DNA of 62,510 nucleotides, filler included, from an uncultured Thermoplasmatales archaeon (GTDB lineage Archaea; Thermoplasmatota; E2; DHVEG-1), in assembly GCA_964517155.1 (NCBI GenBank). It is 5 parts of 5 records of this genome, joined end to end, with 100 filler letters (N's around TTAATTAATTAA, not from the genome) between each part and the next. Parts side by side here need not be neighbours in the genome. Positions count along the whole stretch, not along the records: positions 51,042 to 54,979 come from CAZFAZ010000053.1; positions 55,080 to 62,510 come from CAZFAZ010000057.1; 3 more parts are not named here. One strand, written 5' to 3'. The position numbers were made by a program. Below, piece after piece: positions 53,601 through 62,510 of the stretch (position 1 is the stretch's first letter; each line of letters begins with the position of its first letter).

Positions 53601-56600
53601 TATTTGCAGCAATTAAACATTATGGTCATAATATTAATCTGGAGAAATATGTTCGTTTAATACATGAATCTCTGCAGTATCTTAGACCAGGGCAAGACGA
53701 TATTGCAGATTTAAAAAATAAAAAACAAGAGAAAATAGAAAAAACTGAGTTTAACAAAGAACCAACAGAAACTGAGCCTCAGGAAGAAAAAAGCGAAACA
53801 GTAGAACAATCTGAGGATAAAGACAACTCTGAGGATTACGCAGAAATTGAAAAAACAGTGTTTGAAACAATTAGAGAAATAGAAGGAAAAGATGGTGCTT
53901 CATGGGACAGCATAACAGAAAAATGCGAAAAGAAAGGACTTAACCGCGATAATGTTGAAGAGGCACTTACTAGTCTTATGGATAAAGGACTGATTTATGA
54001 ACCAGTTTTAGGAACTATTAAAACAACATAAAATTTTATTCACGCGGTCTTGTTTTCCTATACCAGATATATGCTATTGGAATCAAAAAGAGTATTGTTG
54101 CAATCATTGCAATCCAGAGCATATATAGTACTGCATCTTGGTCAACATAAAAATCCTTTACCACAATTCTACCATAATACGGCGACATTAAAGGATATAA
54201 ATCTTGGCATCTTTCTCCTGATATATTATAGGGTATGTCACCTATTCCATCATTATTTTTATCAGATCCATTGTAATCATCCCAGTAGTTGCCCTGGTAT
54301 AATTCTTTACTATAAAAAGTATTATTTTCATCATTTAAATAATGAAAAACATGATTTATTGTGTTGTTTATGAAATTATTATGATAAATAATATTGTAAA
54401 TAGAATTATATACAAAACCTATTCCTAGTGAATCATTAGAAAATGTATTATTTATAACGTAATTATTTGAGCTATTTATAAGATAAATACCACACTGAGT
54501 ATTGTTTTTTATCGTATTGTTTGAAATAAGATTTTTTTGACAATTTTTTAGATTAATTCCATCAGCGCCGTTCATTTCTATTATGTTATCAGAAATTATC
54601 GAATTGTTTGAGGAGATATAAATTCCTATACCAACATTAAGATTATCATATGGTATATAGTTTGGATGATAATGACTTCTTGAAAGATACCATTCTAATT
54701 TTACCGTATTAAGATATGTGCTATTTTTTATTGTAAAGCCTTTAATTGTAACATTATCTGCAGAAATATTAATTAAAGAAAATGAATTTTTAGAATTTGT
54801 AAAATAAAAATTTCTTTCTATCATTAAAATTTCATTTCCACCACCAAGAATTGTTTCTTCCTTATCTTCACCGATTAAATTAATAGGTTTATCAATTGTA
54901 ATATGTTCATAATATGTTCCATTATAAACAAAAATTGTATCTCCATCACTAGCATTATCTATTGCATCTTGAATACTAANNNNNNNNNNNNNNNNNNNNN
55001 NNNNNNNNNNNNNNNNNNNNNNNTTAATTAATTAANNNNNNNNNNNNNNNNNNNNNNNNNNNNNNNNNNNNNNNNNNNNTATAAAATCGTCAAAAAACGA
55101 CAATATTATAATTATGCTCCAGTAAATATTAAAAATACCGTTTGTTTAACAAGAAATGTTAAATGAATGAAAAGCAAATAACAATTAGGATTGCAATACT
55201 TGCATCTGAGCCACTTGGTTGGGGTTCAGGTAAGCATTATTTTCCTATGATACTTGATGGTTATTCATGGAGCGTTTCAGGTAAAAAATATAAGTTTGTT
55301 ACGAAGTATATTTATGATAAAGATATAACAAAAGGCAAGCTTTCTAATAAAAACTATGATGTTTTGCTTGTACCGGGTGGGGGTGTTGGTGACGGCGAGG
55401 CTATATCAAGAGGTTTTAGCTTTTCTTTTAAAACTCGGAAATGGAAAAAACAAATCCAAAAGTTTGTAAAAGATGGCGGCGGATATATCGGAATTTGTGG
55501 AGGTACTGCTCTTTTTACAGGGCTTGACACTGGTAAAAATAGTAAACCAAATACTTTTCTTGAAAAATTATATGCTAAAAGTTCGTTGAATCTTTCTGCG
55601 GTTAAGCATTTTTATAATCATCTTGCTTTTCCGCTCTTATATCCATTTCAATATAAGCATCCAGAGCGAGTAGGTGCTACTGGCTATGTTTTTTCTTTTT
55701 CGCTGGGTGAGACTAAAGATAAAGTGTTGTTTCATTCAGGTGGCGTACCTGTTGATTTTAAGATTTTAAAAGACAATCCAATCTTTTCTGATTATCCTCA
55801 GGATGTTCTTCGTATTCGTTGGTGGGGTGGACCAGGTATTACCTTTTCTGATGTTGCTGCTAGATTTTTAAAGGTATGTGCAACTTATCCTAAAAAGGAT
55901 TTTTCTACAGATAATAAGACTAAAATTTATGCTTGGTCGTATCGCGGTGGAATTTTTGGTCTTTTTAGATCTTTTTTTTCTTCTCTTAGTTTTATTAAAA
56001 AAGAAAAACTTGATTTTAAAGATATATTTATGTATACATATTATCTTGCAAAACCTTGGAAAAAAAGTGACAAGATTATTGATTTAGATTTTTCAGACAG
56101 ACCTTCAATTACAATAGAGGAATATCCAAATGAGAACAAAGGTCGAATTGTTCTTTGTACCGCTCATCCTGAATATATGATTTGGTGGGATGGGAATATA
56201 ACTGAGGTTGAAGAAAGTAAAGAAGTCTGTCTTGGTACAGGGTTTCATAAATGGAAAAATGTTAAACCTTTAAGTAAAGAGTTGGCTGATGAATTTACAT
56301 ACACCTGGTGGGTAGTAAGAAGATTTGCAGCATGGGCTGGTAAAGTTTTAGATAAAGAGCTGCCTCCTATTGAAAAAGGAAAAATAAATGAAACTGCGAA
56401 AAAAATAATTAAAGAAAATGTTTATTGGGATAAAACGCTTATTAATCAAATGAAAAACATCTAAGGTGATAAAAAGTGAACTTAAAAAAATCATTTTTGG
56501 CAATTCCTTTAAGTTTTCTTTCTCACTGGCGTTCACTTCCACCTTATGAAATGATTAGCTACGTTTTCATGTATGCAAGTGTGCCTATGCTTGCTTATGG

Positions 56601-59600: not shown

Positions 59601-62510
59601 AAAATTCACATAATTTTTCCCATCCATCTCCCTCAAATAAATCAAATATTAAAAGCTGAGATGGCTTATCTTTAAAATATTCAAATATATCTTTGTTATG
59701 ATCGTTATAAACTTCAAGCAAATCTTGTTTTTTTTCTTTGGTTTCAATATGCCATGGTGCATTTTTAAAGTAATTTTGCCAACTTTTCATAAGTGATTCG
59801 GGTTTTCTAACAGTTAATATAAATTTGCTGTTTATAAATTCTTTATTTAGTTCCTTGTAAAAACCTGGGAAATATATCGGTGCATCTGAAAAGGCATCAA
59901 ATGGGCTTTTTTTGATATATTCTATCCATCCTTTCTTGGGTTTTATATGTGCACGAGGCCAATGAATAGGGCTATAACCTAGAATAGACAATGCTTTATC
60001 AAGAGATGTTGTACCTGTTTTTGAAAAACCTATGCAGAAAACCATTGGATTTTGTTTTTCTTTTTTAAATCTGGCGCGTAAGCTGTAAAAATACTGCAAA
60101 ATTATAATCATTCTGCGGTACAAATTTGCCAATATTAATATCAACCGTGATTTTAAATTTTTATTATTCATCTTGCTTTTAACTCCTAAATTTAATTATT
60201 TACTTATTTTTGAAATTACAACTGGTGATTCAGCAGCAGTTCTAGAGCGAATCGTTTGTATTTTTTCAACTTCTTTTACATTTATTTTTATGTTTTTGCC
60301 TAGTTTGTGCTGCAGTTGTTTTTTTAGTTCTTTAAAGATAATCTCATTTTTTGGCTCAGCATTTTTAAGTTTTTCATCTAAAATTAATAACACGTCTATT
60401 TCATCTATTTTTTCTTGAACTATCTGAAATCTAAGTAATTTTTCTGTTTTAAACATCTGCATTACTTTATGAGGTATTCCTGTTAATGTGAAAGGTGGAA
60501 TTAAATCTCCATTTGGTAAAACTATTGAATCAACTTTTCTTCCACCAATATATTCAATTATTGAAGTATTCATGCCACAGTTGCATTTTTTATCTGATGA
60601 TTTTATAAAATCACTAAGTCCAGTGTATCTTATTATTGGTGTACCTTTGCCATATAAACGTGTTATAATTAAGTTTCCACCGTCGCCATATTTTTCTTCT
60701 TTTTCTTCATGGTCTATATATTCTAAGTATACATAATCATTATTTATATGATAATTTTCGTTTTTACATTGAAATGCAATTGGACTTGTTTCTGTTGCAC
60801 CATACATATCAGCAATTTTTGAACCAAATGCTTTTTTAATTTTTTCACGAGTGTATTTATCCAATATTGCTCCGGTTGTTACTACAAGTTCGGGCTGCAG
60901 GTTTTTTGCATAACCTTGTGATTTAAGAGTTGCAAGTATGCTTAAGTTAGCAGGATAACCCCCGATAAAATCTGGATTGAATTCTTCTAGTTTTTTTATT
61001 AAAAACTCTGGTTTTTCACTAATGTCAAATACTTTCATATTCTCAAAAGAAAGAAACTTGCTTAGACTTGACATTCCAAAGCCTGTGAAAAAAGCGCTTT
61101 CAATGCTGTCCGGTGATAAATCTGCAAGTGTTGCAAGTCTGTTTTTTCTCCAGCTTAGATCATGTGCTCTAAGAATTCTTATAAAACCTATTAAAGAGTG
61201 ATATATTGTAAAAGGTTCATTATAAAATGTTGCAGGTTGCCCGGTTGAACCTGATGTTGTAGATACTAGATATCTGTTCATATCTTCATCTTTTGGCAGT
61301 AAACTTTCAGATGTTTTACCTCTGAAATCTTTTTTTGAGACCATTGGCAGTTTTTCTAAATCTTTAATTCTTTGGATGTCACTTGGATGAACGCCTGCTT
61401 TTTTGTATTTATCATGATAAAGCGGAGTTGTATATGCATATTTTACCAAGGCTCTTATCTGTTTATCTTGATATTTTTTTATTTTTTCAATATCTCTCCA
61501 CGCTCTATCAATGTCTAAAAGGTAACTTTTTGCAAGTTTTGTAAGCAAGCGTGGGCTAATCATAAAAATCATCTTTTCATCTTTTTTAAAAGTTAAAATC
61601 TTTTTTATAGTATCTTCTAAAGTTTACATTTGTACCTGCTGGAAGCAAGCCTCCGATTATTCCTGCGGTTTTAAATATCTTAAGATTTCTTTTTATTATA
61701 TTTGGCCATGAGTAGCATTCTTTTGCAACTTTACATGTGCCTTCGTATAATTCTTTCACAGTCATGTTTTTTGGTTCATAAACAATTTCTACCTGATTGT
61801 ATTTTGACCAATCCTTTGTAAAAATTCTACCTGCCTTATCAAGTCTTTCAAAAAGCGGTGTTCCAGGATATGGCGTAAGTATGTTTATTTCAATAGCATC
61901 AATATCAAGCTCATTTAATTTTTGAGTTGTAGTATCAAAAATATCAAGTGTATCTTCATCAAAACCAAAAATTATGCCACCTTGAATTGTCATATCATAC
62001 TTATGTACTCTTTTTATCATTTTTTCAAAATCTTCAACTTTGTTATGTGTTTTTTTAATGCCGTTTAATGCTGCTTGGCTTACTGATTCAAAACCTACGA
62101 ACCATTCAACACATCCTGCTTTTCTTGCAAGGTCTAAAAACTCATCATCTGTTTTTAATAAAACATTTGTAGTACCGTTTGCAACCCATTTTTTGTTAAT
62201 TTTATTTTTTATCATTTCTTTGAAAAGTTCTTTTGCATATTTTCTGTTGGTTGTTATATGAGGGTCATGTATTATAAATATTCTATTATCCATTTGTTTC
62301 ATTTCTTCTATAACGTTTTTTATAGGTCTTTGTTTTACACCGTGTTCGCAAAAACTACTTATTGCACAGAATTCACATTTATTTGTGCATCCTCTTGTTG
62401 TTTGTATAGCCCCAAGCATAGGATTATGCTTTATTAAATCACGTCTGATTGGAGGTATTTTTGCCATATCAAAGTTTATATCTTTTTCATATATCTTTTT
62501 GAGTTTTCCT

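Follow-up and report, generated by a model that had tools for sequence, protein, structure and literature searches.

What is made by a gene cluster that places a UbiA prenyltransferase beside a nicotianamine-synthase-like (NAS-like) enzyme, a sulfotransferase, an adenylate-forming ligase and B12-binding radical-SAM enzymes (B12-rSAMs) in an uncultured Thermoplasmatales archaeon (GCA_964517155.1)? The cluster fills positions 55080 to 62510 of the window, the whole 62,510-nt stretch of DNA that was analysed; this interval is a single 7,431-nt contig (C57; G000:C57:1-7431) with an N linker immediately before it. A first-pass annotation had read it as a hypervariable locus for a prenylated, N-acylated and sulfated amino-lipid. 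The reading that we hold with moderate confidence, its product being one that we infer, is a lineage-specific cluster of a sediment Thermoplasmata family that makes or modifies a membrane lipid anchored by an isoprenoid and bearing an amino-acid-like group. The clustering, the NAS-like enzyme, the N-acyltransferase, the supply of sulfate donor and the lipid context of the earlier proposal all hold up; the ceramide-type role of the acyltransferase and sulfation as an integral step do not.

Pfam and ORF checks of C57 reproduce the gene content described before. A second contig, C58 (7,421 nt), is a collinear allele, and the identity previously given as 89.5% over 7,436 nt is 89.6% over 7,432 columns on realignment (6,648 identical, 772 different, 12 gapped), fairly even from end to end at 76% to 98% per 250 nt. 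The reported 99-nt end overlaps are exact. One 99-mer (55080-55178) is common to the left ends of C57, C58 and C30, the last in reverse, inside the divergent intergenic region between an N-acyltransferase (GNAT) gene on C30 and the first gene of C57; the other (62412-62510) is common to the right ends of C57 and C58 and the left end of C33, and the divergence between the alleles tapers toward it. C57 and C58 form an assembly bubble, rc(C30) -> C57|C58 -> C33. C30 contributes the 391-aa GNAT, two response regulators and a DUF11 surface protein, and Pfam finds on C33 one more B12-rSAM, then PGK and GAPDH. Both alleles are intact, with all genes under purifying selection (dN/dS 0.05-0.25). They are alleles from two co-existing populations, not a hypervariable locus; the label "hypervariable" is weakened because the alleles are collinear and under purifying selection, and it keeps its force for gene content, which varies between genera.

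The prenyltransferase (56476-57471, plus strand, 331 aa; Pfam UbiA, 97 bits) has five hydrophobic stretches and is the only protein of the cluster predicted to be membrane-embedded, a point against the membrane-lipid reading. Its Asp-rich motifs, N72-D73..D76..D80 and D220..D224, are conserved and intact. Its best NCBIfam models are of the DGGGP synthase (DGGGPS) type, although its 71-114 bits fall short of their cut-offs, 269-296 (PRK12884 is best, 114 bits for a cut-off of 269), and stronger DGGGPS candidates lie elsewhere in the genome, one on C1 with 264 bits and one on C23 with 197. It is a divergent paralogue of DGGGP-synthase-type enzymes, distinct from the housekeeping DGGGP synthase. 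Of 107 other genomes of the family, 79 carry an orthologue.

The next gene (57532-58188, plus strand) encodes a 218-aa SAM-dependent enzyme that passes both the Pfam NAS threshold (31.6 bits, cut-off 27.1) and that of Methyltransf_31 (28.9 bits, cut-off 27). The concern that it might be a plain methyltransferase is eased by a profile of 16 orthologues, whose best PDB matches are CntL (7c7m; 1.3e-14) and thermonicotianamine synthase (3fpe; 1.3e-12), the first ordinary methyltransferase following at 2.3e-6. The GSGxxPxT SAM loop and a preceding Tyr/Tyr/Glu are conserved; the invariant residues are Y55, Y59, E66, G82, G84, P87, D106 and R175. A 3-amino-3-carboxypropyl transferase is the probable identity. 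Several points count against the lipid reading: the protein is 60-80 aa shorter than the solved NAS/CntL enzymes (280-300 aa), only the Rossmann core aligns, a methyltransferase threshold is passed as well, and the NAS/CntL enzymes, to our knowledge, alkylate free amino-acid amines, not lipids. It also differs from them in setting, being paired with a membrane prenyltransferase and having no CntM-type dehydrogenase or transporter nearby. A full-text literature search for an archaeal gene cluster of nicotianamine synthase and prenyltransferase found no paper.

The claim that these genes form a real cluster, conserved across genera, is borne out by the surroundings of the UbiA orthologue in 60 genomes, one locus from each. 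Neighbours were counted within 8 kb; the counts are lower bounds, many loci being cut by contig ends, and related genomes are not independent. The NAS-like gene is present in 46 of these loci (a somewhat different count from the 22 order genomes reported earlier), the B12-rSAM rSAMa in 32, the PaaK-like ligase in 26, a class-I glutamine-amidotransferase (GATase1)-like protein in 23, the GNAT in 17 and a second B12-rSAM, rSAMb, in 15. The NAS/CntL-type enzyme and rSAMa are thus the conserved core around UbiA, its commonest companions across genera. At least 8 of the first 20 loci show the full order GNAT<>GATase1-UbiA-NAS...PaaK-rSAMa-rSAMb, and GNAT and GATase1-like genes occur together in 16/60. 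The YghO-type GNAT, the GATase1-like protein and the PaaK-like ligase are one of two alternative, nearly exclusive accessory sets: 24/60 loci have GNAT or GATase1-like genes, and 23/60 have AttH-like and ArgF genes without either.

The lipid-related setting is also upheld: in relatives, this locus houses enzymes that clearly belong to lipid metabolism. CrtC/AttH-like hydratases occur in 31/60 loci (the Pfam CrtC lipocalin domain is matched by 8 of 14 family members), a second DGGGPS-like UbiA in 21, an OleD/HpnA-like reductase in 17, CMAS-like methyltransferases in 12, and a geranylgeranyl-reductase-family protein and phosphatidylserine decarboxylase in 5 each; Methyltransf_11-type methyltransferases also lie beside UbiA and the NAS-like gene in relatives. 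That these enzymes occur in relatives and not in the locus of the source genome counts against the lipid reading.

The right end of C57 (61586-62509, minus strand) holds the C-terminal 307 of 439 aa of rSAMa (Radical_SAM, 58 bits, plus DUF4070; 5' end open), whose N-terminal part, which contains the B12-binding domain, lies on C33 (L010:3-494, minus strand). Among the first 20 loci, 13 have orthologues, at 62-89% identity. Both rSAMa and an AttH-like gene are present in 20 loci of relatives, and in 7 of these the AttH-like gene comes after rSAMa on the same strand, 26-82 nt away. According to a preprint (10.1101/2025.10.20.683597), pairs of a B12-rSAM and an AttH-like protein modify archaeal tetraether tails, and the order in relatives resembles its ted-hgs pairing, in which Hgs is an AttH-like hydratase; the C57 locus of the source genome has no AttH-like gene. 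Grs, Gmm, Cgm/Pgm and Ted share the class-B radical SAM architecture of a B12-binding domain with CxxxCxxC, a motif that is invariant in rSAMa and rSAMb. At 427-439 aa these two are shorter than the proteins searched for in the preprint (>=500 aa for Ted, >495 aa for Cgm). The B12-rSAM family has members at 35-41% identity in many anaerobic bacteria, in varied contexts, a further point against the lipid reading.

The first gene of C57 (55163-56464, plus strand) encodes a 433-aa "BPL_N-like" protein with weak GATase/PurQ matches in Pfam and NCBIfam (BPL_N/GATase-like, 23 bits, below the 24.2 cut-off). Its AF2 model (pLDDT 77) matches gamma-glutamyl peptidase 1, CTP synthase glutaminase, PurQ and ThuA-like proteins in Foldseek, and a catalytic-type triad, Cys112 (GICGG) with His335-Pro-Glu337, does not vary among 11 orthologues; both the GATase1 fold and the triad are thereby confirmed. 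The adenylate-forming ligase (60196-61572, minus strand, 458 aa; Pfam AMP-binding, 36 bits) is PaaK/F390-synthetase-like, its NCBIfam scores (DVU_1553-family 112 bits, FlxY 108, PaaK 104) all being far under cut-offs. The GNAT, which lies outside 55080-62510 and is transcribed divergently from the GATase1-like gene, retains its proposed kinship to E. coli K-12 YghO (28% identity over 376 aa, pairwise E 7e-52). It is a full-length homologue with a predicted tandem-GNAT fold; in the model (pLDDT 90) it resembles tandem GNATs acting as N-acylating enzymes on small-molecule amines, among them MshD, glucosamine N-acetyltransferase and FemX-type enzymes.

On the isoprenoid-lipid reading, UbiA would attach a polyprenyl chain to an acceptor and the NAS/CntL-type enzyme would transfer SAM's 3-amino-3-carboxypropyl group to a nucleophile of the head group. 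In the source genus the new amine would be N-acylated by the GNAT with an acyl group activated by the PaaK-like ligase, and the GATase1-fold protein might supply ammonia to amidate the carboxylate or remove a gamma-glutamyl or amide group. The two B12-rSAMs would modify unactivated carbons (methylation or related), probably on the isoprenoid chain. The Sulfotransfer_4 enzyme and the repeat protein beside it, a cassette inserted in the source genus, may sulfate the product with PAPS and are only loosely tied to the pathway. In betaine lipids (DGTS; BtaA/BtaB) and in the N-acylation of ornithine lipids, a SAM-derived aminocarboxypropyl group is placed on a lipid and then N-modified. The likeness would be one of functional analogy, with no homology to BtaA claimed; here the anchor would be isoprenoid, and the N-modification in the source genus acylation instead of methylation. 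Every protein family involved is broad, which also counts against lipid tailoring.

We consider it unlikely that all nine genes work together to make a single amino-lipid that is prenylated, N-acylated and sulfated, with the GNAT acting like a bacterial ceramide synthase. All are adjacent in the source genome and in the same-genus G091; a complete PAPS operon on C1 (CysD, CysN, CysC, DHH protein, DASS transporter) would provide for sulfation; and three sulfotransferase families (Sulfotransfer_4, Sulfotransfer_3, ASST) recur beside GNAT/GATase1-type clusters in different genera. The Sulfotransfer_4 enzyme (59536-60171, minus strand, 211 aa; Pfam 110 bits) is, however, found near the UbiA orthologue in just 4/60 loci, and in 1/60 there is the 415-aa repeat protein (58286-59533, plus strand). 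The latter is probably a beta-propeller, with repeats seen in translation and no match in Pfam, NCBIfam or PDB; its closest Atlas clusters consist of hypothetical bacterial proteins, and one of these clusters bears the name "exo-alpha-sialidase". The two genes are paired in G091, G088 and G080, in the last two away from the UbiA locus, and so are a two-gene cassette also found elsewhere. Sulfation looks like a later add-on. Matches to Sulfotransfer_4 are patchy, in 37/118 order genomes at E<=1e-5, about 20 of them full-length (17/117 had been reported), and its gene is the most diverged between C57 and C58 (80% aa identity, dS 0.77, dN/dS 0.16). The ceramide-synthase role is not supported, because no serine palmitoyltransferase (Spt) is found in the genome: the one alpha-oxoamine synthase that it encodes exceeds the cut-off for Kbl (466 bits vs 460) and reaches 377 bits on Spt models against a cut-off of 640. 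E. coli has YghO and, as far as we know, makes no sphingolipids; therefore the family is wider than ceramide synthases. The GNAT thus differs from the E. coli YghO/Caulobacter bCerS family in its archaeal host and missing Spt partner, and its neighbourhood is unrelated to the spt/cerR neighbourhood described in PMC11087976.

It is likewise improbable that there is no single pathway, only a plastic neighbourhood of unrelated accessory genes between housekeeping genes (response regulators, PGK/GAPDH, ArgF) whose adjacency reflects shared ancestry. Gene content does vary strongly between genera, as the two accessory sets attest, and all compared genomes are from one family. A true housekeeping gene, ArgF (343-365 bits above cut-offs), is inside the locus in 31/60, and therefore adjacency here need not mean function. 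Yet the core trio and the GNAT/GATase1 pair survive rearrangements and changes of orientation, epimerase-NAS fusion proteins exist, intergenic gaps are short (e.g. 11 nt separate the GATase1-like gene from UbiA), and both alleles are under purifying selection.

A lipidated, amphiphilic metallophore of nicotianamine/opine type, with the NAS/CntL-type enzyme making a chelator that GNAT and ligase acylate and UbiA prenylates, is quite doubtful. CntL and thermonicotianamine synthase do make metal chelators, and pairs of N-acyltransferase and adenylating ligase are common in siderophore pathways; but none of the 20 annotated ORFs on C30-C57-C33 is a CntM-type opine dehydrogenase, exporter or metal-uptake gene, and in relatives the neighbouring genes encode lipid enzymes rather than transporters. 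Very unlikely is a prenylated aromatic cofactor or quinone-like product (aryl acid activated by the PaaK-like ligase, ring prenylated by UbiA, NAS-like enzyme and B12-rSAMs as C-/O-methylases), for although activation of aryl acids is typical of the PaaK, FlxY and BagE families, aromatics are substrates for prenylation by many UbiA enzymes and the NAS-like protein passes Methyltransf_31, UbiA scores best with DGGGPS-type models and not MenA, UbiA or MqnP, the NAS-like profile favours CntL/NAS by eight orders of magnitude, genes for ring formation, hydroxylases or decarboxylases are lacking from the C30-C57-C33 locus, and the PaaK-like gene is absent from 34/60 loci.

The lipid context in relatives extends to MprF (aminoacyl-phosphatidylglycerol synthase). 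No MprF gene lies within 55080-62510, and the GNAT has no detectable sequence relation to the MprF C-domain (hhalign probability 0.6%). In 3/60 related loci an MprF C-domain protein replaces the GNAT, always adjoining the GATase1-like gene. In the source genome, MprF-TM-like genes flank paralogues of NAS and PaaK; the NAS paralogue, on C49, adjoins an MprF-TM-like flippase-methyltransferase fusion and archaeal mevalonate-pathway genes.

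The segment from 55080 to 62510 of the window is the entire contig C57 of the studied genome, G000 (7,431 nt). Ns part it from the preceding contig; the N run at 54981-55079, placed around the linker 'ttaattaattaa', is a contig-joining mark and non-biological. The seven ORFs on this contig agree with the gene list of the first-pass annotation: a GATase1-like protein (433 aa, with weak BPL_N/GATase matches), a UbiA prenyltransferase (331 aa), a nicotianamine-synthase-like (NAS-like) protein (218 aa), a repeat protein without a family (415 aa), a Sulfotransfer_4 enzyme (211 aa), a PaaK/F390-synthetase-like ligase (458 aa), and 307 aa from the C-terminal end of a radical-SAM enzyme, the remainder of whose gene is on contig C33. 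Exact 99-mers are common to C57, the allelic contig C58 and C30 on the left, and to C57, C58 and C33 on the right; the true order is the reverse complement of C30, then C57 or C58, then C33. From C30 come a divergently transcribed 391-aa tandem acyltransferase (GNAT), two response regulators and a DUF11 surface protein. From C33 come the N-terminal part, with the B12-binding domain, of the split enzyme (rSAMa, 439 aa in total), a second such enzyme (rSAMb, 427 aa), and then PGK, GAPDH and housekeeping genes.

C57 and C58 are 89.6% identical and collinear, and their divergence tapers within rSAMa. This locus had been called hypervariable, a description that the two alleles do not support: they are collinear, each carries intact copies of all seven genes, dN/dS lies between 0.05 and 0.25 (dS 0.2-0.8), and the locus is not one under diversifying selection. 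In public contig sets containing the stretch, pieces identical to C57 show a read depth of ~15-17, and C58-like pieces, ~90% alike to C57, a depth of ~50-82 in the same run, making C57 the minor form, the divergent allele of a co-existing minority population. The two runs that give these depths have near-identical tables, as if a single data set had been deposited two times; possibly they are also the sample from which the window was assembled, and so they are not independent.

The locus is most economically explained as a lineage-specific cluster for the tailoring of an isoprenoid lipid, with UbiA, a NAS/CntL-type enzyme and rSAMa as its core; to these, this genus would add an accessory set made up of the GNAT, the GATase1-like protein, the PaaK-like ligase and rSAMb. 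The UbiA protein belongs to its superfamily by a Pfam score of 97 bits and five hydrophobic stretches, retains both Asp-rich motifs (N72-D73..D76..D80 and D220..D224), and is by hydropathy the sole integral membrane protein among the cluster's proteins. Its top scores come from DGGGPS-type NCBIfam models, yet fall far under the equivalog cut-offs for DGGGP synthase (70.6 against 296 for PRK12882, 113.7 against 269 for PRK12884); two of the five further UbiA paralogues in the genome are better DGGGPS candidates. Of the 107 other genomes in the family, 79 encode an orthologue at 50% identity or more; the ten genomes of the two sister families encode none.

The NAS-like protein passes the Pfam cut-offs of both NAS (31.6 bits, cut-off 27.1) and Methyltransf_31 (28.9, cut-off 27). 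A profile built from 16 orthologues and searched against PDB matches CntL at 1.3e-14 and thermonicotianamine synthase (thermoNAS) at 1.3e-12, ahead of the best ordinary methyltransferase at 2.3e-6; similarity to the aminocarboxypropyl transferases thus exceeds similarity to methyltransferases. The SAM loop and the Tyr-Tyr-Glu set preceding it are conserved as well. Membership in the NAS/CntL family is incomplete, since at 218 aa the protein is shorter than the solved members and lacks their full architecture (~280-300 aa, with an N-terminal helical domain); the alignment to thermoNAS is limited to profile positions 48-177 against residues 94-224. On these comparisons a plain methyltransferase is the less likely reading, and the protein is a putative aminocarboxypropyl transferase. 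Two public proteins of ~520 aa (P0125 and P0126) carry a NAS-like domain fused to an NAD-dependent epimerase/3-beta-HSD-type reductase, a fusion that matches the module of second UbiA, reductase and NAS in relatives. A full-text literature search returned nothing on an archaeal gene cluster combining NAS with a prenyltransferase.

The split enzyme and rSAMb are class B (B12-binding) radical SAM enzymes, with Pfam B12-binding and Radical_SAM domains and a CxxxCxxC core in which C173, C177 and C180 are invariant across 14 sequences. They are two of seven B12-radical-SAM paralogues, 39-47% identical, in this 1.6-Mb genome. Bacterial relatives are many, in mixed and often envelope-related contexts (LtaS/EptA-like, PEMT, ArnT-like, PAP2, Lgt), and no common partner gene was found among them. 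Among archaeal relatives, rSAMa and an AttH/CrtC-like gene are adjacent in 7 of the 20 loci holding both; the AttH/CrtC-like gene comes directly after rSAMa, in the same orientation and separated from it by 26-82 nt (L061, L062, L063, L093, L095, L019 and L021). Garcia et al. (10.1101/2025.10.20.683597) show that tetraether tails are modified by B12-radical-SAM enzymes and by an AttH-like hydratase, and the order seen in the relatives recalls, as a gene arrangement, the hydroxy-GDGT pair ted-hgs. An AttH-like profile search returned 74 loci, all from Thermoplasmata-type MAGs, so this search gave no direct tie to the Bathyarchaeota Ted/Hgs proteins; a PDB search with the AttH-like profile gave no match.

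The GNAT is a full-length homologue of the YghO/bCerS family, 28% identical to E. coli YghO over 376 aa (E 7e-52). Its structural model (pLDDT 90) is a tandem GNAT resembling MshD, glucosamine N-acetyltransferase, the clavulanate tandem GNAT and FemX-type enzymes. None of its best 120 homologue matches has an informative name, and a PDB sequence search gave no match. A ceramide-synthase role, as earlier proposed for this protein, is not borne out, because the only strong alpha-oxoamine synthase of the genome, encoded on contig C63, scores as Kbl (466 bits, above the cut-off of 460). No serine palmitoyltransferase (Spt), which would provide the long-chain base, was found in the genome (90.8% complete), the C63 enzyme scoring 377/640, 278/500 and 236/670 against Spt models.

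The GATase1-like protein has a class I glutamine amidotransferase fold with a Cys-His-Glu triad: across 11 orthologues neither Cys112 (in GICGG) nor His335-Pro-Glu337 varies. Its AlphaFold model (pLDDT 77) resembles gamma-glutamyl peptidase 1 (GGP1), the glutaminase domain of CTP synthase, PurQ and ThuA-like proteins, with Foldseek E-values of 1e-4 to 1e-5 for GGP1, CTP synthase and PurQ; a PDB sequence search gave no match. It is plausibly an active amidotransferase or amidohydrolase and, as it carries no fused synthase domain, may be either. The 458-aa ligase does not reach the PaaK equivalog cut-offs (104 against 700 bits, 91 against 646), which by sequence places it in the wider ANL/PaaK-like group only. 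The 415-aa protein looks like a propeller. It was also considered as a diverged AttH-like hydratase and rejected, as an HMM of 14 AttH-like proteins gave no match; a PDB sequence search with it likewise found nothing.

UbiA neighbourhoods were taken from 60 of the 79 orthologue-bearing genomes, with genes labelled by BLAST against this locus and against recurrent neighbours, and counted within 8 kb of UbiA; the counts are lower bounds because many loci are cut by contig ends, and are not independent because the genomes are kin. On this scale the NAS-like gene occurs in 46 of 60 loci, rSAMa in 32, AttH/CrtC-like and ArgF in 31 each, PaaK-like in 26, GATase1-like in 23, a second UbiA in 21, the GNAT and an OleD/HpnA-like reductase in 17 each, rSAMb in 15, and a CMAS-like methyltransferase in 12. 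Less frequent are Sulfotransfer_3 (7), the geranylgeranyl-reductase family and phosphatidylserine decarboxylase (5 each), Sulfotransfer_4 and arylsulfotransferase (4 each), the MprF C-domain (3) and the propeller protein (1). Two locus types are nearly exclusive: 24 loci have the GNAT or the GATase1-like protein (16 have both together), and 23 have AttH-like and ArgF without either. In three loci without the GNAT, an MprF C-domain protein adjoins the GATase1-like gene instead; these genes, of the aminoacyl-lipid synthase type, are at L059:5374-6405(-), at L069:7057-8076(-) and in L098. Relationship of the GNAT itself to the MprF C-domain was rejected (hhalign probability 0.6%). Carbamoyl capping by the OTCase-family gene beside UbiA can be dismissed: it is a genuine ornithine carbamoyltransferase (343-365 bits, over cut-offs), ArgF in this genome is on contig C54, and the place of the gene beside UbiA in relatives is therefore taken as synteny only, which warns that adjacency at the UbiA locus is not always functional.

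The Sulfotransfer_4 enzyme (Pfam 110 bits) is a PAPS-dependent type, and CysD, CysN and CysC, all above cut-offs, are encoded on contig C1; hydropathy gives no support for a membrane anchor on the enzyme. CysD, CysN and CysC (APS kinase) share one compact operon, at G000:C1:6200-13000 (L184:2237-8941), with a DASS transporter and a phosphatase-like DHH/RecJ-like protein (possibly a PAP phosphatase); the UbiA paralogue that most resembles DGGGPS is ~7 kb away. Sulfotransfer_4 orthologues occur in ~20 of 118 genomes of the order, or in 37 of 118 once weak partial matches are included. In 14 further Sulfotransfer_4 loci away from UbiA, the propeller gene is a convergent neighbour in two (L187 of G088:C108 and L190 of G080:C5, one of them with a DUF11 surface protein close by), members of the lipid-island gene families are near in four, and neither is found in the other eight. 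From this distribution, Sulfotransfer_4 and the propeller gene are a small cassette, which joined the cluster in this genus. Clusters of the GNAT/GATase1 type do recurrently have sulfotransferases of different families beside them. Sulfation of some product is credible, and its link to this pathway is weak; a full-text literature search returned nothing on an archaeal sulfotransferase with a sulfated tetraether lipid.

We infer the chemistry of the tailoring cluster from family-level knowledge, and the families are broad: it would comprise prenyl transfer by UbiA, aminocarboxypropyl transfer by the NAS/CntL-type enzyme, N-acylation with an acid activated by the ligase, amidation or deamidation, and radical methylation by the B12-radical-SAM enzymes. 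A more specific and rather doubtful proposal is that the pairing of UbiA with the NAS/CntL-type enzyme marks an undescribed class of archaeal lipid, in which a SAM-derived 3-amino-3-carboxypropyl (homoserine-like) group sits on an isoprenoid lipid, its amine capped according to lineage and the whole sometimes sulfated. Archaea would have in such a lipid a counterpart, possibly free of phosphate, to the bacterial betaine and ornithine lipids; the cap would be N-acylation by the YghO-type GNAT here and MprF-like aminoacylation or N-methylation in relatives, and the product would be sulfated in some lineages. If this is true, the coupling of a prenyltransferase with a nicotianamine-synthase-type enzyme would be a new route to polar archaeal lipids, and the shortened NAS-like family and the YghO-type acyltransferases of archaea would each have a function for the first time. 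Should the product be a soluble prenylated chelator or cofactor instead, it would likewise be new for this group. Benthic Thermoplasmata are abundant and uncultured, and where many of the lipid biomarkers in sediments come from is not settled; the accessible portion of one paper on sediment archaea makes no mention of the lipids of this group. The predicted mass shifts to seek in environmental lipidomes are those of aminocarboxypropyl, acyl, methyl and sulfate additions.

Related gene sets are found elsewhere in the same genome. Three tandem B12-radical-SAM genes lie beside a Sulfotransfer_3 and a MiaB-like gene at G000:C10:1-7500 (L174), and two more, at G000:C85:3200-13900 (L175), have as neighbours a FemAB-type transferase, an ATP-grasp enzyme, a PaaK-like ligase and two MiaB-like genes; both arrays have the look of sister clusters to this one. 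A NAS paralogue at G000:C49:7400-15600 (L173:3468-11571) adjoins an MprF-TM-like flippase-methyltransferase fusion; downstream are a GHMP kinase, a UbiD-like gene and the AcnX large and small subunits (archaeal mevalonate pathway), and the same region holds a distant AttH-like gene of 485 aa. Finally, a 4.4-kb contig labelled Candidatus Nanoarchaeia (L237) carries a PaaK-like gene (52%), two NAS-like genes and an rSAMb-like gene (46%), and may be either a mis-binned fragment or a case of module transfer.
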